The notes below the pieces were generated by a model, which saw only the letters and a program-made list of their open reading frames with translations, did no database searches and was not told the origin of the DNA. Source: Dehalococcoidia bacterium (GTDB lineage: Bacteria > Chloroflexota > Dehalococcoidia > Bin125). Taken from it: a DNA stretch of 64,000 nt. Where the stretch lies: positions 160,001 to 224,000 of the forward strand of contig CAXXSR010000001.1 of NCBI GenBank assembly GCA_963662615.2, in the 5' to 3' direction. The position numbers and the translations under genes are program-made. Shown here piece by piece: positions 3,092-56,261 of the stretch. Numbering within the stretch: the stretch's first letter is position 1; each line of letters opens with the position of its first letter.

Positions 3092-3100
3092 GTGGTGAAG

Positions 3101-3510: not shown

Positions 3511-3512
3511 CG

Positions 3513-39619: not shown

Positions 39620-40246
39620 TTAGATCCCCGGCGATCGGAAGCCGTCGATTTCGAAACCGTACTCGCGGCCAGCATCGACGAGCGCGTCGAACAGGTATTG
39701 ACCGAACGAGCGCTCGCTGTGAAGCAGGTACGAGCGGTCCCCCCCAAGGTCATGTCGGACGATGTCCGTGACCACGCCGGCGACGGAGCTGCGCAGGGCC
39801 GCTCCATTGGGCGTGACCGAATCGTCGAAGTCGATGGCACACACCTTGGAGAGGACCGGGGCGGCACGGTCTCCGACGAGCCGGATCATGGCTCTGGCAT
39901 GTGTCACATCGACGGCGCTGACATCGTCCGAGTGACCGAGCTCCTGGACCTTCGCCGCAAGCGCAGGAGCCGTGCTGGGCGGGCCCAGCAGCAGCCATTC
40001 ACCGGGCCCGGAGCCAATGATGACGCCGCTGGACTCGTCGCGCCGCAATCGCCCGAAGGGCACGCCAAGCGCCTTTGCCACCGGGCCATTCGCAGGGGCG
40101 TGCACGAGCACCTTGGCGAGGGGCGTGCAGTCCGTGATTCGCTGCGCCGCAGTGCTTCGCTGCGCCGTGACCTCCCAACCGTCCACCACGACCCCCGGCG
40201 CGATGCAGGCGATGGGACTGCGGGCAAGAGGCACGGAGTCAGGCAC
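39620..40246 (-). CDS. soxG: heterotetrameric sarcosine oxidase gamma subunit / N-methylglutamate dehydrogenase MgdD
   Basis: GPGEWLL, VLSKVCAID, RSFGQYL; GTGCCTGA overlap with alpha subunit. Confidence 0.85.
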   Translation of the reverse strand: MPDSVPLARSPIACIAPGVVVDGWEVTAQRSTAAQRITDCTPLAKVLVHAPANGPVAKALGVPFGRLRRDESSGVIIGSGPGEWLLLGPPSTAPALAAKVQELGHSDDVSAVDVTHARAMIRLVGDRAAPVLSKVCAIDFDDSVTPNGAALRSSVAGVVTDIVRHDLGGDRSYLLHSERSFGQYLFDALVDAGREYGFEIDGFRSPGI

Positions 40247-43142
40247 GGAGACGGGCGCCTTCCGGATCGAAATGGGCGTGCTGCGCCATGACGGTGACCG
40301 GGATCTCCTCTCCGTCCGGCAAGCGGACGCGAACGATCGTGCCGGCCGCGGCCAGATCTGGCGCAACGAAGCCGAGGCAGATGGAGCGACTGAGCGTGGG
40401 CGACATGCGGCTGGAGGTGATGCGGCCCACGATCTCGTCGCGCCGTCCGACGATCTGCGCTCCCTCCGGCGGCACGACCGTGCCGTCGACCGGCTGCAGG
40501 CCCACGAGGCGGGGGTAATCGGCTCGCTCCTTCTGCCAGAGGAGTTCCGGCTTGCCCACGAAGTCCTCTTTGTCCAGCTTCACCAGTCCGTCCAGGCCCG
40601 CGCCAAAGGCCTGCGTCAGGGCGTCGGTGTCTTGGCCGACGATCAGATGTCCTTTCTCCAGCCGCATGATGCGTTGCGCTTCCACACCAAAGGGACGGAT
40701 GCCGAGATCAGCCCCCACCTCCAGCAACGTCTCCCAGAGATGGAGACCGTAGCTGGCGGGCGCGTGGATCTCGTAACTCAGCTCTCCCGTGAAGCCAATG
40801 CGCCACATGAAGCAGTCCTGAATGCCGGCGATTCGTCCCGTGCGCACCCGCATGTAAGGGAAGGCTTGGGGATCGAGATCGATACCGTCCACGACCCGCC
40901 GCATCAGCTCTCGCGACTTGGGGCCGGCCACATTCATGCTGGCGTAAGCAGCGGTCATGGGGGTCACGTGCACCCGCCACTCGGGGTGGACGGTCTGGAG
41001 CCACTCCTCCATCCACTGCCAGACGGCCTCGGGGCCGGCGGAGGTGGTGGTCATCAGGTAGCGGTTCTCGCCCAGGCGACCGGTGACACCGTCGTCGATG
41101 ACGACGCCGTCTTCGCCGCACAAGACGCCGTAGCGGACGGAGCCAACGGCCAGCCGGGACCAGCGGTTGACGTACAGCAAGTTGAGGAGCTGGGGGACGT
41201 CGGGGCCGCGCAGGTCGAACTTGCCAAGCGGGGTGACGTCGATCATGCCCACCGTTTGGCGGACGTTACGGACTTCCGCCTCCGGATCGCCGTAGTGATC
41301 GGGACGGATCCAGTGGCCGGCGACGAGCGGTCTCGCCCCGTGCGCCTCGTGCCAGGGTTGCAAGGGGGAAAGACTGAGCGGCTCGAAACTCCGTCCGGCC
41401 AGGGCGCCCAGCGAGATGGGGGCGTAGGGCGGACGCCACGTCGTCGCGCCGGTCTCCTCCATCGTGCGGCCGGTGGCCTCGGCGTGAACGGCAATGGCGT
41501 TCACCAGCTCCAGCTTTCCCTGGGCCGCACCCATGCCCACCGTGGTGTAGCGCTTCGTCAGCTCCAGGGAGTCGTACCCCTCATGCACGGCCGTGACGAT
41601 GTCCTTCGATGAAACGTCCTCGGAGAAGTCGACAATGCCGTGGCTGGCGCCGCGGAACAGGGCGGGATGATCCTGGATGGGGAGGTCGGGGATCGGCACG
41701 GGTGAGCGGTCGGCCGTCCTGTCCGGGACCGCCGAAACGCCGGGATCGTCGGCAGTCAGCGTCCGCTGGCGCGTCGCAGCGCGGCCAGTCGAAGCGCGTT
41801 GTGTCGAAGCGCGGTGGGCCGCTTCCGCGCCCACGGCTCGCGCATGGGCGAGCAGCTGGTCCAGGGTGCCGTCACCCACGATGCGGCCGGTGGCGAGGAC
41901 GTTGTGCGGTGGTTCGGCGGGGAAAAAGCGAGCCGCCCTGCGGTTGTAGAGGGGGCGGTCCCCGGCCATGTTGAGGAGCGCCGTCGGTGCGGTCCAGCCC
42001 ACGGAGGTGACGAGGAGATCCGCTTCCACCGTTTCGCCGCCGGCTATTTCTACCTCCCGCACCCGTCCGCGGCCGCGGGCCCGCACAACGTCGCCGCCGC
42101 TGCGTGCGTCCACCACCCGCGCGATCTCCACTCCCGCACGCTGGAGATCGGCGGCGGCGGCGTCCCCTTCCTCATTGGCCGTCAGGACCACCGCCCGATC
42201 GCCGGGCTTCACGGCGTACAGGTTGATCAGCCGGCGCGCCGCCGAAGCCAGCATCACTCCCGGCTTGTCGTTGCCGTCAAAGACGTAGGGGCGCTCAATC
42301 AGTCCCGGCGCGACGATCAGCACCTTGGCGCGCGCCTTGATGAGACGCTCTTCAACGTTGGCGACGTGCCGCTGCGCCACCGCCACCCAGTTGTCGTCGT
42401 AGCGCCCGGTCACGACGGAGTTGCTCATCACTTCGATATTCGCGCTCGCCGCCACCGCGTCGCGGAGCGCTTGGAGGATCGCGAGCTCGGCCTCGCCTCC
42501 CCAGCGGAGATGGCCGCCCAGCTCGTGTTCCTCGTCGACGAGCAGCACCTTCGCTCCCGACTCGGCGGCGGCGATCGCGGCGCCCATGCCCGCGGGTCCG
42601 CCCCCCGCAATCAGGACATCCGGGTGCGCATAGCGCGCGTCGAAGAGCGCCTCGGGCCGGCGTGAGGGCGCGGTCCCGCCCGGCGTGAACCGTCGCAATA
42701 CCTTCTGATACAGGGGCCAGAATGCTTGTGGCGCCATGAACGTCTTGTAATAGAAGCCGGGGGGCAGGAAGCGACCCGCCGCCTGATTGACTGACTTGAG
42801 GTCGAAGCGGAGCGACGGCCAAACGTTCTGGGCCCGCACGACCATCCCCGGCTCCAGGCGCCGGTGAGCCCCGCGCACGTTGGGCTCATCGCCCACCTGC
42901 ACAAGGCATCCCGGGTCAATGAAGCTCGCCGTCAGCAGTCCCCGCGGACGGTGGTACTTAAAGCTGCGGGAGAAGACGCGCTCGCCGCAGGCGGCCAAGG
43001 CGGAGATGATGGTGTCGCCTCTGTAGGCCGGGTACTCGGCGCCATTCCAGGTGAACGTCAACGGCGCCCCCCGGTCGATTACCTCGCCCGGCTGCGGGCC
43101 CAAGCGCATGGTCATGCGGGACTCGATCGATGTGGTCGTCAC
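40239..43142 (-). CDS. soxA: sarcosine oxidase alpha subunit / N-methylglutamate dehydrogenase MgdC
   Basis: RSFKYHRPRG, GGGPAG, KRYTTVGMG..QGK, GcvT-like DVTPLGK and RIGFTGELSYE. Confidence 0.92.
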   Translation of the reverse strand: MTTTSIESRMTMRLGPQPGEVIDRGAPLTFTWNGAEYPAYRGDTIISALAACGERVFSRSFKYHRPRGLLTASFIDPGCLVQVGDEPNVRGAHRRLEPGMVVRAQNVWPSLRFDLKSVNQAAGRFLPPGFYYKTFMAPQAFWPLYQKVLRRFTPGGTAPSRRPEALFDARYAHPDVLIAGGGPAGMGAAIAAAESGAKVLLVDEEHELGGHLRWGGEAELAILQALRDAVAASANIEVMSNSVVTGRYDDNWVAVAQRHVANVEERLIKARAKVLIVAPGLIERPYVFDGNDKPGVMLASAARRLINLYAVKPGDRAVVLTANEEGDAAAADLQRAGVEIARVVDARSGGDVVRARGRGRVREVEIAGGETVEADLLVTSVGWTAPTALLNMAGDRPLYNRRAARFFPAEPPHNVLATGRIVGDGTLDQLLAHARAVGAEAAHRASTQRASTGRAATRQRTLTADDPGVSAVPDRTADRSPVPIPDLPIQDHPALFRGASHGIVDFSEDVSSKDIVTAVHEGYDSLELTKRYTTVGMGAAQGKLELVNAIAVHAEATGRTMEETGATTWRPPYAPISLGALAGRSFEPLSLSPLQPWHEAHGARPLVAGHWIRPDHYGDPEAEVRNVRQTVGMIDVTPLGKFDLRGPDVPQLLNLLYVNRWSRLAVGSVRYGVLCGEDGVVIDDGVTGRLGENRYLMTTTSAGPEAVWQWMEEWLQTVHPEWRVHVTPMTAAYASMNVAGPKSRELMRRVVDGIDLDPQAFPYMRVRTGRIAGIQDCFMWRIGFTGELSYEIHAPASYGLHLWETLLEVGADLGIRPFGVEAQRIMRLEKGHLIVGQDTDALTQAFGAGLDGLVKLDKEDFVGKPELLWQKERADYPRLVGLQPVDGTVVPPEGAQIVGRRDEIVGRITSSRMSPTLSRSICLGFVAPDLAAAGTIVRVRLPDGEEIPVTVMAQHAHFDPEGARLRA

Positions 43143-43456
43143 GGCCGGCCCTCGGGGTCGGTCTCCCCTGCTCCCGCCGCGCCGTCCGGGTCCAGGCGGA
43201 GCTGGGCCGACGGCCGGCGGACGGCGCGAATCTCGTCGGACACGGTGTGACGCTCCATGACGAAGAAGCGCCTGCAACCGTCTCGGTGAAACCAGCGCTC
43301 GGTCGTCCAACCGGCTGGGTTCGACTGCATATACAGGTAGCGCCGCCATTCCTGCGGACGAGTCGCGTTCGGGTCCGGGCGCGACCGCTCCTCGCCGAGG
43401 TAGGTGAACTCCGCGGCGTTGCGCGGCCCACAATGGATGCAAGGGATGCGTAGCAA
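43139..43456 (-). CDS. soxD: sarcosine oxidase delta subunit / MgdB
   Basis: IPCIHCGPR..EF, YLY, E.W.H..GC, R.T. Confidence 0.9.
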   Translation of the reverse strand: MLRIPCIHCGPRNAAEFTYLGEERSRPDPNATRPQEWRRYLYMQSNPAGWTTERWFHRDGCRRFFVMERHTVSDEIRAVRRPSAQLRLDPDGAAGAGETDPEGRP

Positions 43457-43473
43457 CGCTGCACCTGCCCCGA

Positions 43474-44772
43474 CTAGTGCCCGACCGACGCCGCCCCCTT
43501 CTCGCCGACGAGACGGCCATCGTCGAAGCGAGAGAGCGCGAATGGCTCAATGATTTCCGGCGTCCTGCCCGTGGCGATGAGGGCGGCCATCGCTTCACCG
43601 GCCACCGGTCCGGCCTTGAATCCGTAAGTGCCCCAACCGACGTCCACGTAGAAGCCGTCCACCGGCGTCGCTCCGATGATCGGGGAGAAGTCGGGCGTCA
43701 TGTCGCAGATGCCCGCCCACTGTCGGAGCACCCGCAGCTGGGCCAGCGACGGCATCAGTTGGAGGACGTGGCCGGCGAGTTCCTCGGTGAATTCCAGTGA
43801 GCCGCGAGTCGAATAGGAGGGGTACGGGTCCACGCTCGCTCCGAAGACCAGTTCGCCCCGCGTGGTCTGGTTCACATAGACATGCAGCGTCCCGGAGACC
43901 ACCACCGGATCGAGGAAGAACTGCACAGGCTCCGTGACCGCGGCTTGCAGTGGGAAGGTCAGGATGGGCAGCTCAACCCCTGCCATCGCGGCGATTCGGG
44001 ACGACCAACCGGCCGTGCAGTTGATCACAACGGGCGCGGCGATGGGCCCCTTGGTGGTGACGACTCCGTCCACCTTCCCGTCACGCGCGTGGACGCTGAG
44101 TACCTCCGTGTTTTGGTGGATCTGCACGCCCAGGGCGTCAGCGCCGCGAGCGTAGCCCCAGACCACGGCGTCGTGGCGGATAATGCCGCCGGGCGGGTGG
44201 TAGAGCGCCCCCAGGATCGGATAGCGTGCGTTTGCGGACACGTCCATGTACGGCACAAGCTTCTTCACGGCAGCGGGATCGATGACCTCGGATTCTACCC
44301 CCCGGATCTTGTTGACCTCAGCTCGCCAGAACATGGTCCGCAGGGAGGAGTCGTTGTGCGCGAGGGTCAGGTGGCCGCGTTGCTCGAACATCACGTTGAA
44401 ATTCAGCTTCGCGGCCAAGTGCTCGTACAGCTCCAGCGAGCGCTGATAGAAGTCCACCCCTTCGCCGGTGAGGTAGTTCGAGCGGATAATGGCCGTGTTG
44501 CGGCCGGAGGCGCCGCTGCCGATGTAACTTTTTTCCAGCACGGCGACGTTGCGGATGCCGTGGTCTGCCGCGAGGTGGTAGGCAGTCGCGAGGCCGTGCA
44601 CGCCGCCGCCCACAATGACCACGTCATAGGAGGCGGCAAGCTCATGAGTGGACCAGGCCCGCGGCCACTGCTCCCCAAAAAGACCGTGGCGGAACAAGCT
44701 GAGGGCCGAGTAGCCGGACGCGCCTTGAGGCCGGCTGCTCTTGCGCCGCGCCCGGCTCAGGAGAGATCGCAT
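43474..44772 (-). CDS. soxB: sarcosine oxidase beta subunit / N-methylglutamate dehydrogenase MgdA
   Basis: GGGVHGLATAYHL, GRNTAIIRSNY, RHDAVVWGYA, GWGTYGFKA. Confidence 0.92.
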   Translation of the reverse strand: MRSLLSRARRKSSRPQGASGYSALSLFRHGLFGEQWPRAWSTHELAASYDVVIVGGGVHGLATAYHLAADHGIRNVAVLEKSYIGSGASGRNTAIIRSNYLTGEGVDFYQRSLELYEHLAAKLNFNVMFEQRGHLTLAHNDSSLRTMFWRAEVNKIRGVESEVIDPAAVKKLVPYMDVSANARYPILGALYHPPGGIIRHDAVVWGYARGADALGVQIHQNTEVLSVHARDGKVDGVVTTKGPIAAPVVINCTAGWSSRIAAMAGVELPILTFPLQAAVTEPVQFFLDPVVVSGTLHVYVNQTTRGELVFGASVDPYPSYSTRGSLEFTEELAGHVLQLMPSLAQLRVLRQWAGICDMTPDFSPIIGATPVDGFYVDVGWGTYGFKAGPVAGEAMAALIATGRTPEIIEPFALSRFDDGRLVGEKGAASVGH

Positions 44773-44898
44773 GGCGCCCCCGGATGGTCTTGCCGGCGGC
44801 ACGGTCGCAGCCGCGCTGCGGCGAGGTGGCTCAGGCAACGCAGCAGCGCGCCGCCTTGAGCCGTGCGCGCCGCCCAGGGACGGGGCGCGGTCACCCAT

Positions 44899-46257
44899 CT
44901 AGAAGAGGGTGAGGTAGCGATCAACTTCCCAGTCCGTCACCGTTCGGTGGAACTCAGCGAATTCTTCCCGTTTAGTCCGCACGAAGTAGTCGATGTAGTC
45001 CCCGCCGGGGACGGGACCGAGGGCGCGACGCAGCACGTCGTCGCGTTCGAGCACGTCGACGGCGTGGGCCAGCGTCTGCGGCATGATCTGAATCCCGCGC
45101 GCCTGCACTGCATCGAGCGGGAGATCGTAGAGGTTGTCGGCGTTCGGCTCTCCGGGATCGAGACAGCGGTCGATCCCGTCGAGCCCAGCCGCGAGCATGA
45201 CGGTGAAGGCGAGGTAGGGGTTGGCGGCGCCATCGACGCTGCGATTCTCGACCCGGCCCGGTTCCGGGACGCGCAACATCTGGGTGCGGTTGTTGCCGCC
45301 GTACGTCGCGTAGGCCGGGGCCCAGGTTGCGCCGGAAGCCGGCGGACCGACTCCAATGCGCTTGTACGAGTTCACCGTGGGATTGGTCACCGCCGCCATG
45401 GCTGTGGCATGGTCCAGCAGGCCGGCGATGAACTGGTAGGCCAAGCGGGAGAGTCCCAGTCCGCGTGCATCGGCGGGGTCACAGAAGAGCGGTTGTCCCG
45501 TCTCGGTGTCCCAGAGGCTGCTGTGCACGTGCATTCCGTTGCCGGTGAGATGCTGGAACGGCTTGGGCATGAATGTGGCCGCGAGCCCCACCTGGTCCGC
45601 CAGCGTGTGCACCATGTAGCGGAAGAAGATGGCGCGGTCCGCCGTGGTCAAGGCGTCGGCGTAGGCGAAGTTCTGCTCGAACTGCCCGTTGGCATCTTCG
45701 TGGTCGTTGGCGTAGTTGGACCAGCCCAGCGCATTCATGTACCGGGAGACCTTGGTGAGGTGGTCATACATGCGGGTGAGGCCTTTGGCGTCGTAGCAGG
45801 GCTGCTCGGCGGTATCGAGTGGATCGGCCAGAGCGATTCCGCCCTCCGGCCTCCGGCGCACCAGGAAGTATTCGGCCTCCACACCGCAGTTGAGGAGCAT
45901 TCGTCGCTCTTGAAGCTGCGCGAGCTGGCGCTTGAGGATGACCCGGGGTGCGTACGGCCAGGCCGCACCGTTGACGCGAATGTCGCAGTGAAGAACGGCC
46001 AGCCCCTTCTGCCAGGGGACGGGGGTGTAGGAGCTGGGGTCGGGGATGGCCATCATGTCGGGGTCGGCGGGGCTTTGGCCCATGGGACCCGCCGCGAAGC
46101 CCGCGAAGCCGACGCCCTCGGTCATCAGCGCATCGAAAGCGCCGGCCGGCACGAGCTTGGCGCAGGGCTTCCCGTGCATGTCGACGAACATCGCGAAGAA
46201 GAACTCGATGCCGTCCTCGGCGGCGCGACGCTGGAGATCGGCGTGGGCCTCGGCCAT
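44899..46257 (-). CDS. glnT: GlnT-type glutamate--ammonia ligase / gamma-glutamylmethylamide synthetase (GmaS)
   Basis: AKLVPA, GFAGFA, QPCYD, NDHEDANGQFEQN, GNNRTQM; adjacent to glxBCD and sox-like genes. Confidence 0.9.
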   Translation of the reverse strand: MAEAHADLQRRAAEDGIEFFFAMFVDMHGKPCAKLVPAGAFDALMTEGVGFAGFAAGPMGQSPADPDMMAIPDPSSYTPVPWQKGLAVLHCDIRVNGAAWPYAPRVILKRQLAQLQERRMLLNCGVEAEYFLVRRRPEGGIALADPLDTAEQPCYDAKGLTRMYDHLTKVSRYMNALGWSNYANDHEDANGQFEQNFAYADALTTADRAIFFRYMVHTLADQVGLAATFMPKPFQHLTGNGMHVHSSLWDTETGQPLFCDPADARGLGLSRLAYQFIAGLLDHATAMAAVTNPTVNSYKRIGVGPPASGATWAPAYATYGGNNRTQMLRVPEPGRVENRSVDGAANPYLAFTVMLAAGLDGIDRCLDPGEPNADNLYDLPLDAVQARGIQIMPQTLAHAVDVLERDDVLRRALGPVPGGDYIDYFVRTKREEFAEFHRTVTDWEVDRYLTLF

Positions 46258-46426
46258 AGCCCCTCCTCATCAGGCCTGAGTTCCGCGCGAGCGAAGGGCC
46301 CCAAGGATACGCCACCCGCCGGAGCGGGAAAACCGCCTGCCGCAACGGTCACGGGGAGTGCGCGCTGTGTAATATGGGCGTGCTGCCTGCCTTGCAAGCG
46401 GCGAAGTGGGGGGCCCGGCTGCAACC

Positions 46427-47323
46427 GTGTGTGGAATCGTTGGGCTCCAACTGAAGAACCCCGCGCTGTATCCCCAACTCGGCGCGCTGCTCACGCCGAT
46501 GCTCCTGGCCATGAGCGAGCGGGGGCCGGATTCCGCCGGGCTCGCGCTCTATGAAGACGGGCTCGGTGAGGGCAGTTCCCGCTATTCGTTACGGGCGCCC
46601 GCCCCCGGGTTCGACTGGGAGCGTCTCGCCAGCCGCATTGAGAGTGCGCTCGACGTGAGGGCCGGCCTCCGCTGCGTCGCGGATGATGCGATCGTCACGG
46701 TCGACGCGGACCCCGACTTGATCCTGCAGTGGCTCAGCAAGGAGGCGCCGGAGGTGCGGGTGTTCGCGGTTGGCAGGGCAATGGAGATCTATAAGGACGT
46801 GGGGGCGCCCAGCGAAATTTGCCGCCGCTACGGAATCACGAGCCGCGCCGGCTACCAGGGCTTGGGACATACCCGCATGGCCACCGAGTCCGCCGTCACT
46901 ACGGATCACTCGCACCCGTTCGCCTCCGCGGCGGACCTCTGCCTGGTCCACAACGGGACTTTCTCGAATTACGCCACCATCCGCCGCCTCCTGATGGACG
47001 AAGGACTTCACTTCGACACGGACAACGACTCCGAAGTCGCGGCGCGGTTCATCGCGCGGCAAATGGCGAACGGGAGCGACCTGCGCGAGGCGCTTGAGCG
47101 TCTCCTGACGGAGCTGGACGGCTTCTTCACGCTGCTGGTCGCCTCCCGGGATCAGTTCGCCGTGGTTCGCGATGCCTTCGCCTGCAAGCCGGCAGTGATC
47201 GCGGAGTGCGACGACTACGTCGCCATGGCGTCGGAGTACCGCGCTCTCGCCGAGCTACCTGGAATCGATGAAGCGACCGTCTTCGAGCCGATGCCCGAGG
47301 ACATCCACGTATGGTCACGCTGA
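46427..47323 (+). CDS. glxB: class II glutamine amidotransferase / N-methylglutamate synthase subunit A (MgsA)
   Basis: N-terminal (M)CGIVG, ERGPDSAG, GHTRMATES, VHNG, NDSEV, FACKP. Confidence 0.9.
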   Translation: MCGIVGLQLKNPALYPQLGALLTPMLLAMSERGPDSAGLALYEDGLGEGSSRYSLRAPAPGFDWERLASRIESALDVRAGLRCVADDAIVTVDADPDLILQWLSKEAPEVRVFAVGRAMEIYKDVGAPSEICRRYGITSRAGYQGLGHTRMATESAVTTDHSHPFASAADLCLVHNGTFSNYATIRRLLMDEGLHFDTDNDSEVAARFIARQMANGSDLREALERLLTELDGFFTLLVASRDQFAVVRDAFACKPAVIAECDDYVAMASEYRALAELPGIDEATVFEPMPEDIHVWSR

Positions 47324-47988
47324 GCTGCGCCGATCAGAGCACGCGCCAGATCAACGCAGCCCTGGCGCAGCTTCCCGAAGGCGCGCGAGTGACCATCGCC
47401 GAGCCCAAGGGACGGCACAACCTCGCGGTCGGGTTGGAGAACAAGATCCAGGTGGAAATCGACGGGAACGCCGGGTACTTCATCGGCGGACTGTGCGATG
47501 GGCCCCAGATCACCGTGAACGGCTTCGTGGGCTGGTCCGTGGGCGAAAATCTCATGAGCGGCACGGTCCGAGTGAAGGGGAACGCCTCGGAATGCGCCGG
47601 CGCCTCCAGCCACGGCGGCACGATCATTATCGAAGGCGACGCATCCTCCCGCGCCGGAATCTCGTTGAAGGGCGGCACCGTGCTCGTCGCTGGTGATGTG
47701 GGGCACATGAGTGGATTCATGGCCCAGGCGGGGATCATCTTGATCGGCGCGGACGCGGGGGAGGCGCTGGGCGATTCACTGTATGAGGCGGTGATCTACG
47801 TTGGTGGACGGATTCGATCGCTTGGTGCAGACGCGCAGGTAGAGGAGCTGACGGGAGATGACGTCGCCGTCGTGAGACGGCTGGCCGGCCTCGCGGGGTT
47901 CGCGCATATCAACCCGGAGAACGTGACCCGCGTCGGCTCCGCGCGCCGGCTCTATCATTTCGACTCTCTAAAAGATCACCAGTATTGA
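47311..47988 (+). CDS. glxC: GXGXG-domain protein / N-methylglutamate synthase subunit B (MgsB)
   Basis: GRHNLAVG, ENLMSG, GISLKG, GHMSGFMAQAG, LGDSLYE. Confidence 0.9.
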   Translation: MVTLSCADQSTRQINAALAQLPEGARVTIAEPKGRHNLAVGLENKIQVEIDGNAGYFIGGLCDGPQITVNGFVGWSVGENLMSGTVRVKGNASECAGASSHGGTIIIEGDASSRAGISLKGGTVLVAGDVGHMSGFMAQAGIILIGADAGEALGDSLYEAVIYVGGRIRSLGADAQVEELTGDDVAVVRRLAGLAGFAHINPENVTRVGSARRLYHFDSLKDHQY

Positions 47989-49358
47989 TGCCCGGACCGG
48001 AGGTCGATCGCCCCCCGCTTCCCATGGACGCCTGGAGACGGAGCGACACGTTCCCTCCCGAGACCATTGCCCATATCCAGCGCATGGCCGCCGAAGGGCA
48101 CTACGAGATCCGCGGCTGGGGGGCGAAGCGAGCGCTGCCCAAATTTGACGATCTCGTGTTCCTCACGGCGTCGGCGTCACGCTATCCCTTGGAGGGGTAC
48201 CGGGAGCGCTGCGAGACCAAGACCGTCCTCGGGACCCGCTTCGCCAAACGGCCCCTGGAGCTGGAGATTCCCATCACGATTGCCGGGATGAGCTTCGGCG
48301 CGCTCTCGGCGCGCGCCAAGGAGGCTCTGGGGAGGGGGGCGAGCGCGGCGGGGACCTCCACGACGACCGGCGACGGCGGCATGACGCGGGAGGAGCGCCA
48401 GGCCTCCACGCTGCTCGTCTACCAGTGCCTCCCCTCCCGCTACGGGTTCAATCCGAGCGATCTCCGCAATGCGGATGCCATCGAGATCGTGATCGGGCAA
48501 GGGGCGAAGCCGGGCGGCGGAGGCATTCTCCTGGGCCAGAAGGTGAGTGAGCGGGTCGCGGAGATGCGCACCCTGCCGCCCGGCATTGACCAACGGTCGG
48601 CGTCCCGCCATCCCGACTGGGTGGGACCCGATGATCTGCGGATCAAGATCGAAGAGCTGCGGGAGGCCACGCACTGGGAGAAGCCGATCTTCGTCAAGCT
48701 CGGCGCCACCCGCGTCACCAACGACGTGAAGCTCGTCGTCGCCTCGGGCGCTGACGTCGTCGTGGTGGACGGCCTGGAGGGTGGGACTGCGGCCACGCAG
48801 GATATCTTCCTTGAGCACGCGGGCATCCCCACCCTGGCCGCCGTGCGGCAAGCGGCCGACGCTCTCCGCGAGATCGGGATGGAGGAGCAGGTACAACTCG
48901 TGGTCTCCGGGGGCATTCGCTCCGGAGCCGACGTGGCCAAGGCGCTCGCCCTGGGCGCCAACGCCGTCTCGCTCGGGACCGCGGCGTTGATCGCGCTCGG
49001 CTGCAACAGCCGCACGTATATGCATGACGGCAAGCCGGTCGATGTGACCACCGATTATCACGCGCTGGGGACGGAACCCGGATCCTGTCACCATATGCAC
49101 ACGGGCAGGTGCCCGGTTGGCATCGCCACCCAAGACCCCCAATTGGAGCAGCGACTCGATCCGGACCTGGGCGCCGAACGCGTTGCCAACTACCTCCAGG
49201 CCTTGACCATGGAGCTGACAGCACTGGCGAGGGCCTGCGGCAAGTCGGACGTGCACAATCTGGAGCCGGAAGACCTTGTGGCTCTGACGATCGAGGCGGC
49301 GGCCATGGCCCGGGTCCCATTGGCGGGCACGAACTGGATCCCGGGTTGGCAGAGCTGA
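47988..49358 (+). CDS. glxD: FMN-binding glutamate synthase family / N-methylglutamate synthase subunit C (MgsC)
   Basis: SRYPLEGYRE, GMSFGALS, GQGAKPGGGG, RHPDW, CPVGIATQD. Confidence 0.92.
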   Translation: MPGPEVDRPPLPMDAWRRSDTFPPETIAHIQRMAAEGHYEIRGWGAKRALPKFDDLVFLTASASRYPLEGYRERCETKTVLGTRFAKRPLELEIPITIAGMSFGALSARAKEALGRGASAAGTSTTTGDGGMTREERQASTLLVYQCLPSRYGFNPSDLRNADAIEIVIGQGAKPGGGGILLGQKVSERVAEMRTLPPGIDQRSASRHPDWVGPDDLRIKIEELREATHWEKPIFVKLGATRVTNDVKLVVASGADVVVVDGLEGGTAATQDIFLEHAGIPTLAAVRQAADALREIGMEEQVQLVVSGGIRSGADVAKALALGANAVSLGTAALIALGCNSRTYMHDGKPVDVTTDYHALGTEPGSCHHMHTGRCPVGIATQDPQLEQRLDPDLGAERVANYLQALTMELTALARACGKSDVHNLEPEDLVALTIEAAAMARVPLAGTNWIPGWQS

Positions 49359-49401
49359 CTCGGACGGGCACTTCCGCGTCGCGCCACTTGCGAGCGGGCG
49401 C

Positions 49402-50142
49402 TTGAGCCGTCGACTATCCTTGTCGCCGGTCGGGAGGGTTGCCGTGCCGCCATCGCCGTTCACGCCGGACCTGTCCACACTGCTGGCGGCGCTCCGCCAC
49501 GGCGACAGCTTTTTCCCAAGCGGGGCGATGGCGTTCTCCCATGGCCTGGAAAGCCGGCACGCGGATGGGCGCCTGACGACGCCCGACGCCGTAGAGGCGT
49601 TCATCATCGGTCAGGTGCGCGGCCGCTGGGCGACGTGTGACCGCGGCGTCCTGGTGGCAGCCCACGACGCCGGCGACGACCTGGAGGCGGTAGAGAGCGC
49701 CGACCAGCTCCTGGAGGCGCTCACCTTGTCGAAGGAGCTTCGAGAGGGCTCGCGAAGGGCGGGCGCCGCCTTGCTCAGTGTGCACGTTGGCCTGGGCACG
49801 CGGAACGCACGGGCTTACGACGCCGGGACGGCGGCGGGCAGCGCGCCCAGGCACCTGGCGGCCATCCAGGGATTGGTTTGGCGCGGCAGCGGCCTGCCTC
49901 GCGATCACGCCTGCGCCATGAGCGGCCACAGCCTTTGCGTCGGCCTGCTGGGCGCGGCCTTGCGACTGGGAGCGATTGGACATGTGATGGCGCAACGCCT
50001 CCTCGCGACTACGCATCAGACTCTCGCTGCCGTGCTCCGATCCGATCCGCCGCCGCTGAACGAACTCCATAGCTATGCGCCCGCCGCCGAGATCGCCGTC
50101 ATGCGCCACGAGACGCAGCTCGGTCGCCTGTTCGCGAACTGA
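49402..50142 (+). CDS. ureF: urease accessory protein UreF
   Basis: DSFFPSGAMAFSHGLE, AALRLG, HET...RLFAN. Confidence 0.9.
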   Translation: MSRRLSLSPVGRVAVPPSPFTPDLSTLLAALRHGDSFFPSGAMAFSHGLESRHADGRLTTPDAVEAFIIGQVRGRWATCDRGVLVAAHDAGDDLEAVESADQLLEALTLSKELREGSRRAGAALLSVHVGLGTRNARAYDAGTAAGSAPRHLAAIQGLVWRGSGLPRDHACAMSGHSLCVGLLGAALRLGAIGHVMAQRLLATTHQTLAAVLRSDPPPLNELHSYAPAAEIAVMRHETQLGRLFAN

Positions 50143-50161
50143 TCGTGTCAAGGGATGAACG

Positions 50162-50860
50162 ATGCTACTCACACCGACGGAGATGGAGCGCCTGACAATC
50201 TTTTGCGCCGCGGAGCTGGCCCGCAAGCGGCGGGCGCGCGGCCTCCAGCTGAATCATCCCGAGACCGTTGCCTACATCGCCGACGAAATCCTTGAAGGCG
50301 CCCGCGACGGGAAGTCGGTCGCGGAGCTGATCAGCTTCGGCGCGACTCTCCTGACCACAGATGACGTCTTGCCCGGCGTAGCCGAGATGACGCCGATTAT
50401 CCAGGTGGAGGGCAGCTTCGACGACGGGACCAAACTGGTTACCGTCCACGATCCGATCAGACCCGGCGCCAAGGCGGTGGAGCCCGCCGCTCGCATTCCC
50501 GGCGAAGTGATCACCGCCGAAGGCGAAATCGAAATTAACGCGGGGCGGCGCCGGATCGCCGTGGTAGTGACCAATACGGGCGACCGGCCGGTGCAAGTCG
50601 GCAGCCATTACCACTTCTTTGAGGTCAACCGCTTCCTGGAGTTCGATCGCGCCGCCGCCTTCGGCATGCACCTGGACGTTCCCGCCGGCACGGCGCTGCG
50701 CTTCGAGCCCGGCGAGAGCAAAGAGGTGACGGTGGTGGAGTTTGGAGGTAGCGGAGATCTGTTCGGCCTCAACAGTCTGACGAACGGGCCGTTCCGCCTC
50801 GCCGGCGTTCGAGAGGCGGCGGTCCAACGCGCGCGCGCGCGCGGATTCAAGGGAGCCTGA
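50162..50860 (+). CDS. ureAB: fused urease gamma/beta subunit
   Basis: [20 protein letters not shown] then [25 protein letters not shown]. Confidence 0.93.
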
Positions 50861-50863
50861 GCG

Positions 50864-52576
50864 ATGGCCACGATCTCTCGCCGCCACTACGCCACGCTGT
50901 ATGGACCAACGACCGGCGACGCGATCCGGCTGGGTGACACGTCCCTCTTGGCCGAGATTGAGCGCGACCATGCCGTCCCCGGCGACGAATGCTTGCACGG
51001 CGGCGGGAAAACCCTCCGCGACGGGCTCGGGCAGGTCCCCGGGCTCACCAGTGCCGCGGGCTCGCTGGACATGCTGATCAGCAACGTCGTCGTGATTGAT
51101 CCCGTCCTCGGCATCGTCAAGGGTGATCTCGGTATCAAGGAGGGGCGCATCGTCGGGATCGGCAAGGCGGGCAATCCCGCCATCATGGACGGCGTGGATG
51201 CGCGCCTGCTGTGCGGCGCGGCGACCACGGTCCGCGACGGCGAGGGCCTCATCGCCACGCCGGGTGGCATCGACTGCCACGTGCATTTCGACAGCGCGCA
51301 GCTGGTCGAGCACGCGATCAGCTGCGGGATCACGACCATGCTGGGGGGCTCGCTGGGGCCGATCACCGTCGGCATTGACTCGGGCGGCGCCTGGAACGTC
51401 GGCAAGATGCTGCAGGCCGCCGAGCAGTGGCCAATGAACTTTGGCTTTCTGGGCCGCGGCAACTCCTCCAAGCCGGAGTCCCTGGTGGAACAGATCCAGG
51501 CCGGCTGCGTTGGTCTCAAGATCCACGAGGACTGGGGGGCCATGCCCGCTGTGATTGACTGTTGCCTCGCCGTCGCTGACGACATGGACGTGCAGGTCCA
51601 GCTCCATACCGACACGCTGAATGAGAGCGGTTTCCTGGAGGACACGCTGGCGGCGATCAAGGGCCGCACGATCCACATGTACCACGCCGAAGGCGCCGGC
51701 GGGGGTCATGCGCCCGACATCATCCGCGTCGCGGGCGAGCCCTACTGTCTCCCCTCGTCGACGAACCCTACGAACCCCTACACGGTCAACACCTTCGATG
51801 AGCACCTGGACATGATCATGGTCTGCCATCACCTCAACCCGGCCGTCCCGGAGGACGTCGCCTTCGCTGAGAGCCGCATCCGCCCGGAGACCATCGCCGC
51901 GGAGGACGTGCTCCACGACATGGGCGCCATCTCCATGCTGGACTCCGATAGCCAGGGCATGGGCCGGATCAACGAAGTGATCTGCCGCACTTGGCAGCTC
52001 GCCAGCAAGATGAAGGACCAGCGCGGCCGGCTCCCGGAGGAGAGCGGTCAGCACGGCGACAACGAGCGAATCAAGCGGTACATCGCGAAGTACACGATCA
52101 ACCCGGCGCGCACCTTCGGCATTGCCGCGGAGGTCGGCTCACTTGAAGCCGGCAAGCTCGCCGACGTGGTCCTCTGGCGCCCCGCCTTCTTCGGCGTGAA
52201 GCCCGAGCTCATGATCAAGGGCGGCTTCATTGTCTGGTCGGCGATGGGCGACAGCGCGGCGTCACTCATGACCTGTGAGCCGGTCATCATGCGGCCGCAG
52301 TGGGGCGCCTTCGGAGGAGCGCCGAAGGCCCTCAGTCTGAGTTTCGTCTCGCAAGCGGCTGTCGATCGCGACATTCAGGAACGCCTGCGCCTCGGCAAGG
52401 AGGTCGTGGCAGCGAAGGAGACGCGCCGGCTCGGCAAGTCTGCGATGCTGCACAACGACGCCTGCCCCGAGGTGCGCGTGAATCCCGAGACGTTTGAGGT
52501 TCACGTCGACGGGGAACTGGCGACCTGCGAGCCCGCCAGCGAACTGCCGCTGGCACGACGGTACATGTTGCGATGA
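50864..52576 (+). CDS. ureC: urease alpha subunit (divergent clade)
   Basis: [46 protein letters not shown]. Confidence 0.93.
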
Positions 52577-53208
52577 CAGGCGACTCGAATCCCCAAACTT
52601 CCCACCGCCCTCGGATCGGCATCGGCGGACCGGTCGGTTCCGGCAAGACGGCGCTGATCGAATCGCTGATCCCCCGGCTCGGCGCACGAGGGTATGAGCT
52701 GGCCGTCATCACCAACGACCTGGTGACCCAAGAGGATGCGGAGCGGCTGCGGCGCTCCGGCCTGATCGTGCCCGAGCGCGTGCTGGCAGTGGAGACCGGC
52801 GCCTGTCCGCACACCGCCATCCGCGAGGATCCCACCCTGAATCTGGAGGCCGCTCGCCTTCTCGAGCGCCGCTTCCCGTCCCTGGACCTCATCTTGATCG
52901 AGAGCGGCGGTGACAATCTCGCCTCCACGTTCTCTCGGGAACTCATCGGCTACTGGCTCTTCGTAATCGATGTCGCGGCGGGCGATGATATCCCCCGCAA
53001 AGGTGGTCCGGGGATCACGCAGTGCGACCTGCTGGTGATCAACAAGGTTGACTTGGCGCCGTACGTGCATGCGGATGTGCAGGCGATGGAGAGGGACGCC
53101 GCCGCCGGGCGCGACAACCGTCCCGTGGCGCTGACGAACTGTCTCACGGGCGAGGGGGTGGAGGCGGTGGCAGACCGGCTCGCGGGCGCCGTCCTCGCCG
53201 CGGTCTAA
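52573..53208 (+). CDS. ureG: urease accessory GTPase UreG
   Basis: [27 protein letters not shown]. Confidence 0.95.
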
Positions 53209-53215
53209 GCCTGAC

Positions 53216-54055
53216 GTGGCCGATTCCTCAGATGCGCGCGCGGAGTTCCGCTTTCGCCGGAGCCCGTCCGGGGAGACCTACCTTGCCTCCCACTACGCTC
53301 CCTATCCGTTCCACATTGCGCGAGTGCTGCACCCCGATCCGGGCTGGCCGGACCTCCCGACACTTTGCCTCCAAAGCGCCTCGGGCGGCCTGTTCCAGGG
53401 AGACCGGCTCGCTGTGGCGGTCGAGATGGGGGAGGAGACGGTGGCCCAAATCACGTCCCAATCGGCAACCAAGGCCCACGGGATGCCTCGCCGCCCAGCG
53501 ATGCAGACCGTGGCGCTGAACTTGGATTCGGATTCGTACCTGGAATACCTCGCGGATCCCGTGATCCTCTTCCCCGCATCACGTGTCAGCAGCTCGCTGC
53601 GGATCCGTATCGCCCCCGGCGCCCGCGCCATCGCGCGGGAATCCTTCCTCCACCACGACCCGGCCGGGTCCTGCGACCCAGCCTTCGACCTCTTCGTCAG
53701 CGCCGTGTCGGTGGAAGACTCGGCCGGCGCACTCCTTGCCCTTGATCGACAGCGCATTGAGCGTCCGGGCGACCACGACGAAGTTCGTGAGGCGCTCCGC
53801 CACCATCGTGCCCAGGGCTCGATATACATTGTCGGGGCTGAGCCGACCCCAGAACTGCTGACCGCCCTCCGCGATGTCATTCCCCAGAATGACGAGCTGT
53901 ACGGCGGCGTGTCGAGCTTGCCGCACGGCTGCGGCGCGTATGCGCGCGTCTTGGCCCGCGACGGCCAAACCCTCCGTTCGGTGCTGGATCTGGCAGGCGC
54001 CGTCGCGCGTCGAATCATCACGGGGCGTTCGACCAAGGCGACCTGGCGGAAGTGA
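53216..54055 (+). CDS. ureD: urease accessory protein UreD
   Basis: SGGLFQGD, SQSATK, LEYLADPVI. Confidence 0.88.
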   Translation: MADSSDARAEFRFRRSPSGETYLASHYAPYPFHIARVLHPDPGWPDLPTLCLQSASGGLFQGDRLAVAVEMGEETVAQITSQSATKAHGMPRRPAMQTVALNLDSDSYLEYLADPVILFPASRVSSSLRIRIAPGARAIARESFLHHDPAGSCDPAFDLFVSAVSVEDSAGALLALDRQRIERPGDHDEVREALRHHRAQGSIYIVGAEPTPELLTALRDVIPQNDELYGGVSSLPHGCGAYARVLARDGQTLRSVLDLAGAVARRIITGRSTKATWRK

Positions 54056-54248
54056 GTGGTCAGCGCCCCAATTGCGACTCCACCCGCGCGCCTGTCCGTC
54101 CGACCTGCCGGGGCGAAGTCGGCATGCCCGGTGTAGGCTAGGCCTGCGCCCCGATCACCGGCAGCCGACCGCGCTAGCCGCGATGAGAGGCGCGGCACGC
54201 TCGCTCCTGCCCACGATCCCGCAAGCGAGGCGGGAGGGGGATGACACA

Positions 54249-55529
54249 ATGCGGCGGTTCACGGGGCTCACCATTGCCGCGTTCGCGCTGGCGGCGCTGG
54301 CCCTATCGGCCTGCGGAGGTGGCACCGACGACGCCTCCGAGCCGGCAGCGAGCAGCGAGCCGGTGGCGGCGGCGGAACCGGCGATCGCCGAGCGTCCCGC
54401 GGAGAGCGGCGAATCCAGCAGCCCACCTTCGCAGGAGGTCGCCGAGCCGGCTGACCAGGTCCGGGCCGAGTCCGCCCCGGACGCATCGGCGGAGGCCGCG
54501 GTCGCGGAACTGCCGGAGCTACTTCAGGCGCTGCTCGATGCCGGGCGGCTGCGCCTGGGTGTTGTCGGCGCGGCGATGGCCGTGCGCGCGCCCGCGCTGG
54601 GGACGTGGGTGGGGGCGAGCGGATCGTCTGACCGCGACGGCAACATCCCCACCGAGCCGGACCACCTCTTCCGCGTTGGCGACATGTCAATCCCGCTCGT
54701 CGCCGCCCTCATGCTGCAGCTTGCCGAGGAGGGCGTGCTCAGCCTGGACGATCCGCTCAGCGCGTACGTTGCCGATTTTCCCAATGGCGACGAGATCACG
54801 CTGCGCCAACTGCTCAATCACACCAGTGGCGTCGTCGACCTCTTCGATGACCGCGTGGGCGTCGCCCGGGAGGTCAGCGAGAGGCCCAACAAGGTCTGGA
54901 CGGCCGAGGAAGTGGTGGCGAGCACGACGGCGGCGCCGCCGTACTTCGAGCCGGGGGCCGGCTGGCGCTTTTCACGCACCGGGTACATCCTGCTGGGGAT
55001 GGTTGTGGAGGCCGCCACGGGGTCGCCGCTGAGCGTGGAGCTGCGGCGGCGGTTCTTCGAGCCGCTCGAACTCTCGCACACATTCATTGCGGAAGCGGAC
55101 ACGGACCCCGGCAGTATCGTTGAGGGGTTCGACGTGTTCGGGCGGTTTTTCGGTCCCTACACCGCCTGGAACACCGCGCTGGGAGCGGCGACAGGCGCCA
55201 TGGTTTCCAGCGCCGGCGATACGGTCCGCTGGGTCGAGGCGCTCTTCAGCGGCTCCCTCCTGAGCGACGCGTCCAGCGCGGAGATGCTCACCTTCGTGGA
55301 GGAGTTTCTCCCGCCAGGATTCGGCTACGGGCTGGGGATCGCCAGATTGGAGACGGGGCTCGGGGTCATGTTGACGCATGTCAGCGAGGGGCCGCCCGGT
55401 TTCGCCTCCGCCATGAGCTATTGGCCCGAGCACGACATCGCCGTGGTGGTGCTCGCCAACACGGGGGACGCGAGCTTCATTGACTTCTTTGTCGAGGTCG
55501 CGGGGCTCGTGTTGCAGCAACAGGGCTAG
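54249..55529 (+). CDS. beta-lactamase/serine hydrolase-fold lipoprotein with degenerate catalytic motifs
   Basis: LSAC lipobox; LSLDDPL, ITLRQLLNHTSG, FEPG, YGLG, VVVLAN; SxxK position reads DMSI. Confidence 0.85.
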   Translation: MRRFTGLTIAAFALAALALSACGGGTDDASEPAASSEPVAAAEPAIAERPAESGESSSPPSQEVAEPADQVRAESAPDASAEAAVAELPELLQALLDAGRLRLGVVGAAMAVRAPALGTWVGASGSSDRDGNIPTEPDHLFRVGDMSIPLVAALMLQLAEEGVLSLDDPLSAYVADFPNGDEITLRQLLNHTSGVVDLFDDRVGVAREVSERPNKVWTAEEVVASTTAAPPYFEPGAGWRFSRTGYILLGMVVEAATGSPLSVELRRRFFEPLELSHTFIAEADTDPGSIVEGFDVFGRFFGPYTAWNTALGAATGAMVSSAGDTVRWVEALFSGSLLSDASSAEMLTFVEEFLPPGFGYGLGIARLETGLGVMLTHVSEGPPGFASAMSYWPEHDIAVVVLANTGDASFIDFFVEVAGLVLQQQG

Positions 55530-56156: not shown

Positions 56157-56261
56157 ACATCAGGATCCTGAAGCAAGTCTGCAGGTCCCGCGATCGACAT
56201 CCCTGACTGCTGGGGAACATTTTCAACTCGAGCGACACGGCTCCAGGTGCTTCCCGGTTCC

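Follow-up and report, generated by a model that had tools for sequence, protein, structure and literature searches.

Does the divergent urease encoded directly behind N-methylglutamate (NMG) pathway genes in a Dehalococcoidia bacterium still split urea, or has its pocket been altered to accept a methylated substrate such as N-methylurea? The locus lies in a 64,000-nt stretch, hereafter the window (GCA_963662615.2, contig CAXXSR010000001.1, positions 160,001-224,000). A sequence-only reading had placed ureF-ureAB-ureC-ureG-ureD behind mgsABC on the plus strand, with gmaS and the sox genes divergent; open reading frames (ORFs), Pfam and NCBIfam agreed on this order and on the strands. The features, in window coordinates, are:

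39620..40366, minus strand: SoxG/MgdD-like gamma subunit of N-methylglutamate dehydrogenase (Pfam SoxG, GCV_T)
40239..43598 (longest ORF), minus strand: SoxA/MgdC-like alpha subunit (Pfam GCV_T, SO_alpha_A3, Fer2_4)
43474..44898, minus strand: SoxB/MgdA-like FAD subunit (Pfam DAO)
44899..46257, minus strand: GmaS, gamma-glutamylmethylamide synthetase family (Gln-synt_C; TIGR03105, 624.6 bits, cut-off 469.6)
46406..47323, plus strand: MgsA/GlxB, class-II amidotransferase domain (GATase_6, GATase_7)
47311..47988, plus strand: MgsB/GlxC, GXGXG domain (PF01493)
47985..49358, plus strand: MgsC/GlxD, FMN glutamate-synthase domain (PF01645, 330 bits)
49359..49443, plus strand: spacer between mgsC and ureF (43 nt with the longest ureF ORF, 85 nt with the likelier GTG start)
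49402..50142, likely start 49444, plus strand: UreF (PF01730)
50162..50860, plus strand: UreAB, fused urease gamma and beta, 232 aa (Urease_gamma at residues 1-99, Urease_beta at 113-209)
50864..52576, plus strand: UreC, catalytic alpha subunit, short-loop subclass (TIGR01792, 836.6 bits, cut-off 680)
51344..51394, plus strand: codons of the 17-residue short loop, UreC residues 161-177, which replaces the Ala167 stretch
51944..51964, plus strand: codons of SDSQGMG, UreC 361-367 (Asp362, nickel ligand; Gly365, at the place of Klebsiella aerogenes Ala363)
52573..53208, plus strand: UreG GTPase, P-loop GGPVGSGKT and CPH motif (TIGR00101, 258 bits, cut-off 204)
53216..54055, plus strand: UreD (PF01774)

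The NMG part comprises a GmaS-family ligase, whose family NCBIfam names 'type III glutamate-ammonia ligase', and a three-part synthase with GATase, GXGXG and FMN glutamate-synthase domains. ORFs resembling the beta, alpha and gamma subunits of NMG dehydrogenase are also present, with scores below the NCBIfam soxA and soxB cut-offs: the SoxB-like ORF scored 501 bits, slightly under 529 (TIGR01373), and the SoxA-like ORF 848.9 bits, under 1164 (TIGR01372). About 170 N-terminal residues of the latter matched no family and overlap the SoxB-like gene; this 5' stretch may mean that the gene starts elsewhere or that a delta subunit is encoded separately. In the urease part, UreAB scored 353 bits against the 'bifunctional gamma/beta' model NF009671 (cut-off 243), and the accessory genes for UreD, UreF and UreG (with its P-loop and CPH motif) are all in the window. 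A tblastn search of the whole genome with a clade UreE as the query gave no match; not every urease comes with a UreE.

A gap of 43 bp without evident terminator had been claimed between mgsC and ureF. The figure holds for the longest ureF ORF, which starts with TTG at 49402, but a GTG at 49444 would give a product of 232 aa and follows, by 5 nt, the Shine-Dalgarno-like GGGAGGG at 49432-49438. Since UreF ORFs at 67 loci had a median length of 235 aa, which the 232-aa product fits, a gap of 85 nt is more likely. The claim about the terminator stood: the gap held no terminator-like site and folded no better than shuffled sequences (z = +1.09), and the region 44500-56500 showed no excess of such sites (6, versus 5.1 expected from shuffles). 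Co-transcription of the urease genes with mgsABC is plausible from this arrangement.

Is the catalytic subunit that of a urease? UreC passed the cut-off of the urease-alpha equivalog TIGR01792 and scored 894.8 bits against NF009686 (cut-off 354). The nickel ligands of K. aerogenes urease are His134, His136, carbamylated Lys217, His246, His272 and Asp360. All six metal ligands of the window's UreC (HVH at 139-141, K219, H248, H274 and D362) fell in the ligand columns of the alignment, and His219, Asp221, the Cys319-His320 flap and Arg336 were found in KIHEDWG, MVCHHL and SRIRPET, residues with catalytic or substrate roles in urease. The accessible part of PMC7433671 gives partial support for these roles. 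The earlier statement that the ligands and the CHH flap are kept was thus borne out.

The wall of the pocket is another matter. In HMMER alignments with jack bean and Klebsiella-type urease, the window's UreC showed a 3-residue gap, with 17 residues in place of the canonical 20; the other motif is SDSQGMG, and the canonical wall (the loop with Ala167, and Ala363 of SDSQAMG) is absent. Both changes had been noticed before and were confirmed. Counting along the 8hcn chain, Ala167 falls within the replaced stretch and Ala363 corresponds to the Gly of SDSQGMG. The suggestion that these two alanines line the site of the urea amino group agrees with the available part of PMC7433671, where the urea nitrogen bound to Ni(2) is held by the main-chain carbonyl groups of Ala170 and Ala366 (Sporosarcina pasteurii numbering). 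Moreover, 45 alignment columns tell 81 clade UreC sequences apart from 12 canonical sequences. Their clusters lie directly behind HxH (Ile138Asp), within the loop at 158-172 and at 463-478, and comprise Thr224Ala and Thr225Met after KxHEDWG as well as Ser358Gly and Ala363Gly. Judged from these alignments, the remodelling of the clade pocket is coordinated.

These changes raise the idea of an amidohydrolase for N-alkylureas (N-methylurea) or N-methyl-amides, which we consider unlikely. The short loop and Ala363Gly would make room for the methyl group, and the products would be methylamine, ammonia and CO2, with GmaS, MgsABC and Mgd taking up the methylamine. The altered residues are indeed found where the urea nitrogen is held, and the second-shell changes are coordinated; however, all residues for urea catalysis are kept and, as far as the text of PMC7433671 goes, Ala167 and Ala363 make their contacts through backbone atoms, so that side-chain changes need not shift specificity. 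According to the available portion of PMC9699525, methylated amines support growth of Aminobacter niigataensis MD1 whereas dimethylurea as a carbon source does not, which also speaks against this idea, although MD1 may not be a carrier of the clade.

The variant is not confined to the window. We sampled the 120 best UreC homologues among the matches listed (one being the window's own protein) and fetched 80 loci, 63 of them informative. The short loop and SDSQGMG were present in 120/120 of these homologues and in the UreC of 80/80 loci; on alignment evidence this is a conserved clade trait, neither chance nor private to the window. From Alpha- and Gammaproteobacteria (Burkholderiales among them) to Chloroflexota, clade UreC proteins show 76-87% identity, UreAB is fused in 76/80 loci, and the genes run (E)F-AB-C-G-D. 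A tree built with FastTree showed the UreC proteins of the window and of locus L026 nested among alphaproteobacterial sequences, and any urease was found in only 4 of 24 relatives of the window's family; both results fit acquisition by transfer. Our search of the literature found no enzyme assays of clade members.

Copy number points in two directions. The clade gene is the sole urease-type gene in 5 of the 16 genomes examined and, within an alphaproteobacterial sample of 301 genomes, in 4 of the 11 that carry the clade; that genomes which make urea have the clade enzyme as their only urease argues against N-methylurea as the substrate. A canonical urease is kept in addition to the clade copy in 10/16 examined genomes. 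A difference in function between the two enzymes would account for this more readily, and the coexistence favours hydrolysis of N-methylurea. In the window's own genome only one urease-alpha match exceeded the cut-off, namely the clade copy, and no urea carboxylase did. The genome's single arginase-family gene lies 1.4 Mb away and scores above the cut-off of the RocF equivalog; no Urt-type binding protein was found there by tblastn.

Does the clade follow methylamine genes, as the proposed test of co-occurrence with gmaS-mgs demanded? In the alphaproteobacterial sample, MgsC-like genes were present in 10/10 clade-bearing versus 40/290 other genomes (p = 7e-9, uncorrected for phylogeny), the latter being 12/70 with another urease and 28/220 without a urease match. 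Among Burkholderiales the counts were 18/23 clade carriers versus 22/277 others (p = 7e-14, likewise uncorrected), and all 16 hand-picked carriers had such a gene. Within the window's family, MgsC orthologues of 80-82% identity occurred in 5/24 relatives, and the urease adjoins NMG genes in all 5 urease-bearing genomes, in two arrangements. Across genomes the clade is associated with MgsC-like genes; other ureases are not. The test succeeded at this level but not in adjacency: NMG genes lay within 10 kb of the cassette in only 3/63 informative loci. They adjoin it in three unrelated lineages (L026 with the window, L066 and L086). A GmaS-family gene was within 10 kb in 9/63 loci, in L024 directly upstream of ureE.

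Co-occurrence in two independent samples and in 16/16 hand-picked carriers, together with adjacency in the three lineages and in 5/5 family genomes, speaks for hydrolysis of N-methylurea. It is doubtful, but conceivable, that the short-loop subclass is not urea-specific and that its methylamine product is captured by gamma-glutamylating GS-III/GlxBCD systems (NMG and its paralogues); hydrolysis of N-alkylureas or N-methyl-amides would account for the near confinement of the subclass, in contrast to canonical urease, to genomes with GS-III/GlxBCD. If true, this would define a new way into methylamine metabolism, and the subclass would be the first urease from nature whose specificity has shifted. 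Against it, 5/23 Burkholderiales carriers had no MgsC-like gene, and in 9 carriers the sole match was a 53-60% identical GS-like/GlxBCD paralogue, which may have another amine specificity.

The neighbourhoods of the cassette also weigh against a methylated substrate: the usual neighbours are mostly not methylamine genes but genes for urea/amide uptake and urea-producing enzymes. Urt-type urea/amide transporter genes were near the cassette in 37/63 informative loci, and representative Urt proteins exceeded the UrtA, B, C and D cut-offs. UreE was present in 47/63, and on plasmids of Aminobacter and Methylobacterium radiotolerans the cassette lies beside allantoin/urate catabolism genes. AmiR (25/63), aliphatic amidase AmiE (17/63) and CbbQ/VWA genes (15/63) were usually codirectional with the cassette, which would suit a hydrolase of short-chain amides or acyl-ureas (formamide, acetamide, acetylurea) working beside the amidase under AmiC/AmiR; related binding-protein systems transport amides with short chains, and also urea, in Methylophilus (PMC10781810, in the part available). 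Such an activity is nevertheless very improbable: aliphatic amides are already covered by AmiE, the full urea-specific catalytic set is kept, and neither the window nor its genome gave a tblastn match to amiC, amiR or amiE.

At 7/63 loci a tandem DmgH-like ureohydrolase pair was found. These loci hold hypB, hypA, the DmgH-like alpha/beta pair and then the cassette, with an NMT1-type ABC transporter, and 4 of them (L014, L030, L055 and L063) have a GS-III-like gene; the pair of L007, which follows hypB and hypA, scored 596 and 556 bits against metformin hydrolase subunits A and B. Here a true urease could have a metabolic tie to methylamines: degradation of guanidino or ureido compounds that bear methyl groups would give urea and methylated amines (e.g. 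dimethylguanidine to dimethylamine and urea), urease and NMG then being the two branches of a single pathway. The chemistry of DmgH, and growth with dimethylguanidine, have been published (PMC11399263, partial text). As an account of the clade we regard this tie as quite improbable, since a DmgH-like gene was found in only 1 of 301 Alphaproteobacteria (carrier G125), away from its urease. The window's genome had no DmgH-like gene by tblastn, its sole arginase-family gene being the distant RocF-type one, and no guanidine riboswitch was found in the 7 loci or the window.

The reading that we favour, with somewhat more confidence than doubt, is that of a genuine urease belonging to a new subclass, whose tie to the use of methylated nitrogen would lie in ecology or co-inheritance. 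From the residues kept and the company of the genes, the clade would be a widespread urease subclass, most likely still urea-splitting. In the window, ureF-ureAB-ureC-ureG-ureD would encode a genuine nickel-dependent urease of this distinct, horizontally spread subclass, marked by fused gamma-beta, the (E)F-AB-C-G-D order, the 3-residue-shorter loop for the Ala167 stretch and Ala363Gly. Urea from the cell's arginase or from uptake would be converted to ammonia and CO2. The cassette was probably acquired from Alphaproteobacteria. Placed directly downstream of the NMG operon, it is likely to be reached by that operon's transcripts or to share its regulation, the two forming one putative organic-nitrogen-scavenging island. 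The link to methylamine genes would then reflect shared ecology or co-inheritance, not shared chemistry.

How does this urease compare with known systems? The window's UreC is about 59% identical to representatives of canonical Ni-urease (K. aerogenes UreABC, S. pasteurii, jack bean) and scored 700-707 bits against the solved structures. It shares with them the nickel ligands, the carbamylated-lysine motif, His219/Asp221, the CHH flap, Arg336 and UreD/F/G, and differs in the shortened and rewritten Ala167 loop, in Ala363Gly and in some 45 clade columns concentrated near the active site; the clade's fusion and gene order, and the window genome's lack of ureE, are further differences. The two-chain architecture resembles that of Helicobacter-type ureases (fused gamma-beta UreA plus UreB), among which Helicobacter mustelae UreA2B2 is a second, iron-containing urease. 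However, the window's UreAB fell below the cut-off of NF010592, the equivalog for Helicobacter UreA (258 versus 353 bits), and fits NF009671, nickel accessory genes are present, and Helicobacter UreB chains scored below K. aerogenes chains.

In A. niigataensis, according to the accessible text of Sinn et al. 2024 (PMC11399263), DmgH yields dimethylamine and urea, with a 'urease encoded downstream'. The 7 clade loci likewise place the urease after a DmgH-like pair, and Aminobacter plasmids carry the clade urease at 76% identity; the window is without dmgH, and the urease behind the Aminobacter operon may not be of this clade. An AmiC/AmiR-controlled amide operon, whose genes AmiC, AmiR and AmiE are absent at the window, is common elsewhere in the clade. 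With methylotroph NMG clusters (e.g. Methylobacterium; PMC5017803, in part) the window shares the gene families and the divergent two-operon layout. The available part of that paper reports no urease at the 3' end of described clusters, whereas the window and 4 relatives have a codirectional urease cassette there.

In the ORF list and the Pfam and NCBIfam scans, the window showed two divergent operons of the N-methylglutamate (NMG) pathway followed by a urease cassette. As the sequence-only reading had described, mgsABC (alias glxBCD) and the urease genes lie on one strand, and gmaS and the sox-like genes are divergent:

39620-40366, minus strand, soxG-like gene
40239-43598, minus strand, soxA-like gene
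43474-44898, minus strand, soxB-like gene
44899-46257, minus strand, gmaS
46406-49358, plus strand, mgsA, mgsB and mgsC
49402-54055, plus strand, ureF, fused ureAB, ureC, ureG and ureD

The 43-bp gap reported earlier between mgsC and ureF holds for the longest ureF ORF but not for the likelier start: GTG at 49444, with GGGAGGG 5 nt upstream, yields a 232-aa UreF of the usual length, so the gap is probably 85 nt. The spacer contained no terminator-like site and folded no better than its shuffles, in agreement with the earlier remark that no terminator was evident. An Rfam scan of the window returned one tRNA gene (58953-59024, minus strand) and nothing relevant; no guanidine riboswitch was found.

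Several other features of the window were recorded. Downstream, the longest form of a beta-lactamase-family (PF00144) ORF (53874-55529) shares about 180 nt with the 3' end of ureD, and a later start is therefore probable. A corrinoid methyltransferase set on the minus strand (1475-6676; RACo-like activase, B12-binding, pterin-binding and URO-D/MtaA-like proteins) hints at demethylation of methylated compounds, encoded in the genome region that also contains the NMG genes. An aldehyde:ferredoxin oxidoreductase-family gene lies at 13111-14829. A 1229-nt direct repeat of 99.8% identity (15591-16819 and 32739-33967), each copy with a BPD_transp_2 permease ORF (15597-16706; 32745-33854) of identical Pfam scores, may reflect either a genuine duplication or an artefact of assembly.

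The UreC of the window shares about 59% identity with canonical representatives and aligned end to end with solved ureases (700-707 bits). It retains all metal ligands, KIHEDWG, the MVCHHL flap and SRIRPET; the claim that the nickel ligands and the CHH flap are kept was thus borne out. The same alignment displayed both of the changes noticed before: the Klebsiella-type stretch of 20 residues is replaced by one of 17 residues, leaving a 3-residue gap, and SDSQAMG has become SDSQGMG. By residue count along the aligned 8hcn chain, Ala167 falls within the replaced stretch, and Ala363 coincides with the introduced glycine. These alanines had been said to line the urea amino-group site, and this is right: in the available text of a review of the urease mechanism (PMC7433671), their counterparts Ala170 and Ala366 hold the Ni(2)-bound nitrogen of urea through backbone carbonyls, and the C-beta of Ala366 contacts the Ni(2)-side water. 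As a caveat, the contacts are made via backbone atoms. UreG of the window carries the P-loop and the CPH motif, and UreE was not found by tblastn anywhere in the genome.

The short loop and SDSQGMG define a widespread subclass (the clade below). In a search of 5.8 billion proteins, the best 120 hits (one being the window's own protein) were 81-100% identical and all carried both features, as did all of the 80 loci that were retrieved from species genomes. Among the named carriers are Pseudomonas asturiensis, P. syringae group strains, Stutzerimonas stutzeri, Paraburkholderia caffeinilytica, Pararobbsia alpina, Methylophilus, Methylopila, Hansschlegelia and Bosea; in Aminobacter, Methylobacterium radiotolerans, Shinella and Ancylobacter the gene is on megaplasmids, and it also occurs in marine and Chloroflexota genomes. 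The clade was present in about 3% of the species sampled from Alphaproteobacteria and about 8% of those sampled from Burkholderiales (24/301 genomes in the order sample). In the sample of the class Gammaproteobacteria only the chosen central genome (the centre) carried it: of the 299 other scored genomes none did, and one further genome was unscored.

In a FastTree tree of 110 UreC rows (local support values only, root uncertain), 81 clade rows stood behind a long stem (length 0.26, support 100). Distant urease-like families lacking the CHH flap formed the next group, and the clade, the odd paralogues and these families were set apart from canonical ureases with support 97. The window UreC paired with that of a MAG labelled Dehalococcoidia (L026), among alphaproteobacterial rows. 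Forty-five alignment columns set the 81 clade sequences apart from 12 canonical sequences; these columns cluster downstream of HxH, within the loop, downstream of KxHEDWG, near Asp360 and at 463-478. Representatives at 50% identity failed as a separator, as canonical ureases and the clade share clusters; more distant urease-like families surfaced there.

Other urease-like paralogues also came to light. Those at L031 (19906-21615, minus strand), L103 and L099 (genome G007) keep the metal ligands with altered flaps and pockets: MVAHRL, MACHLL or ITCHNL replaces MVCHHL, and KIHEDYG or KIHEDWS is found. They are probably neofunctionalised urease homologues; in the tree, L103 and L031b lay inside or adjoining the clade rows and L099 outside. 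G007 has three non-canonical urease copies and no canonical one. Large families 39-55% identical to window UreC (representatives P0126, P0128-P0130, P0133, P0136, P0143 and P0156) retain the ligands HxH, K, H, H and D; they have no CHH flap, and their pocket loops are short or missing. For these divergent families, with P0126 searched, no solved structure was closer than canonical urease.

The window's genome had one urease-alpha match over the cut-off, no urea carboxylase over the cut-off, and one arginase-family gene over the RocF equivalog cut-off; tblastn detected no UrtA, AmiR, AmiE or DmgH. Within its family, 4 of 24 genomes had a urease-type match, all four belonging to the clade (85-86% identity). 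In these four relatives gmaS and the mgd genes precede the cassette and mgsCBA is divergent; in the window it is mgsABC that precedes it. A sixth family genome (G019) has the NMG cluster oriented as in the window and no urease. The two arrangements show that the urease-NMG linkage is old within the family and add little beyond that, because inversion of the NMG block would preserve adjacency and co-direction.

Copy number varied among carriers. Ten of 16 hand-picked genomes had the clade enzyme plus a canonical urease, five (the window's included) had the clade enzyme only, and one had it with two odd paralogues. The 11 carriers among 301 Alphaproteobacteria, centre included and called by at least 77% identity rather than by motif, comprised four with a canonical urease (second hit 57-60% identical), four with the clade enzyme only and three with other paralogues.

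We then used the window's MgsC as query against these genome samples (E <= 1e-120), excluding the centre from Fisher tests. With kinship ignored, MgsC hits were present in 10/10 carriers vs 40/290 other Alphaproteobacteria (301 genomes, p = 7e-9) and in 18/23 carriers vs 22/277 other Burkholderiales (301 genomes, p = 7e-14); the clade does co-occur with MgsC-like genes across genomes, along the lines of the test that had been proposed. The 51 hits among the 301 Alphaproteobacteria fell in 11/11 clade carriers, 12/70 other urease-bearing genomes and 28/220 without a urease match. The association is real and specific to the short-loop subclass. All 16 hand-picked (non-random) carriers also had an MgsC hit, 13 at 67% identity or more. 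In nine carriers the sole hit was only 53-60% identical, and four such loci examined were operons of GS-like, GlxB, GlxC and GlxD genes. These run in one direction (L127, 9080-13699; L128, 9461-14090; L129, 5852-10483; L130, 5585-10216) and are 28-32% (GmaS), 31-34% (MgsA), 38-42% (MgsB) and 53-55% (MgsC) identical to the window's proteins; they are NMG-gene paralogues in carriers without a close MgsC. The clade urease and MgsC genes are mostly unlinked in the sampled genomes: both Aminobacter plasmids have them on one replicon, hundreds of kb apart, and the urease replicon pMRAD01 has no MgsC.

This association is what one would predict if the altered pocket had shifted specificity towards N-methylated ureas or amides, with N-methylurea hydrolysis feeding GmaS, Mgs and Mgd. 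It would also be expected if the NMG pathway and a mobile module for amide/urea scavenging had replicons in common, or an ecotype, namely methylotrophic, organic-nitrogen-scavenging bacteria. We regard a shift in specificity as unlikely. Weakly against its dimethyl variant, Aminobacter MD1, which is not a confirmed clade carrier, failed to use dimethylurea as carbon source in one growth test described in the available text of PMC9699525.

All ORFs of the 80 loci were clustered, and flanking genes were counted over the 63 loci with at least 8 kb of flank.

Genes flanking the short-loop urease gene (loci of 63)
ureF + ureAB: 58
ureG + ureD: 53
ureE: 47
Urt-type transporter genes: 37
AmiR: 25
aliphatic amidase AmiE: 17
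CbbQ/VWA: 15
NMT1-type binding protein: 9
GS-III/GmaS-family gene: 9
tandem ureohydrolase pair: 7, plus L072 with a single copy
cytosine-deaminase-like gene replacing ureG/ureD: 7
at least two of mgsABC: 3 (L026, L066, L086)
none of these features: 9

Three recurring neighbour families were rejected: one of 419 aa is a shadow ORF, rich in Arg, Ala and Gly, on the strand opposite an Amidohydro_3 gene, and those of 196 and 170 aa are antisense within urt genes. Among solved structures, the one nearest to the Urt-like binding protein is 8tg1, an 'extracellular ligand-binding receptor', for which a literature search found no relevant paper. A GmaS-family ligase (L024, 6572-7879; TIGR03105, 676 bits) lies directly upstream of ureE in the clade cassette of a 2.0-Mb gammaproteobacterial genome.

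On the Aminobacter and M. radiotolerans plasmids, the cassette adjoins allantoin and urate genes. At L007 (1463-8071), an operon of NMT1-type ABC transporter, hypB, hypA and the tandem ureohydrolase pair leads directly into the cassette; similar operons occur at L014, L030, L031, L051, L055 and L063, and four of the seven loci also have a GS-III-like gene. The pair is very close to the alpha and beta subunits of metformin/dimethylguanidine hydrolase (DmgH; 596 and 556 bits for L007 against metformin hydrolase subunits A and B). In the available text of PMC11399263, dimethylguanidine hydrolase yields dimethylamine and urea, and a urease is reported downstream. Rfam detected no guanidine riboswitch at these seven loci, only tRNAs and two 5_ureB_sRNA hits antisense to ureC, which we read as coding-sequence conservation. 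A true urease within a route of this kind would couple urea and methylamines directly. However, a DmgH-like protein was found in only 1/301 sampled Alphaproteobacteria, too rare to be the general cause of the methylamine link; we rejected it as such and consider the coupled route quite improbable.

The gene neighbourhoods of the clade point to urea as substrate. Because the catalytic set is intact, the neighbours are urea-related and the enzyme is the sole urease in urea-making genomes, urea stays the likeliest substrate, counting the plain and the coupled reading together, and we lean towards the plain reading that the short-loop enzyme would be a true urease acting on urea.

Databases name clade proteins plain urease or 'urease subunit alpha'. 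In the searched literature (most subscription journals outside its scope), neither the subclass nor its pocket nor its methylamine-gene link was described; within the same scope, no paper brought together methylurea, urease and methylamine, and the subclass was absent from work on second, paralogous or fused ureases, amide operons with urease, and Methylophilus urease. Were specificity shifted, substituted ureas would gain through this enzyme a new way into C1 and nitrogen metabolism. Should it be an ordinary urease, the subclass would still mark a mobile nitrogen-scavenging module and offer a natural experiment on the pocket features that are truly required to hydrolyse urea. Few metalloenzymes have been studied as thoroughly as urease, and its pocket residues generally count as invariant, yet here they are rewritten across a large, well-conserved subclass.
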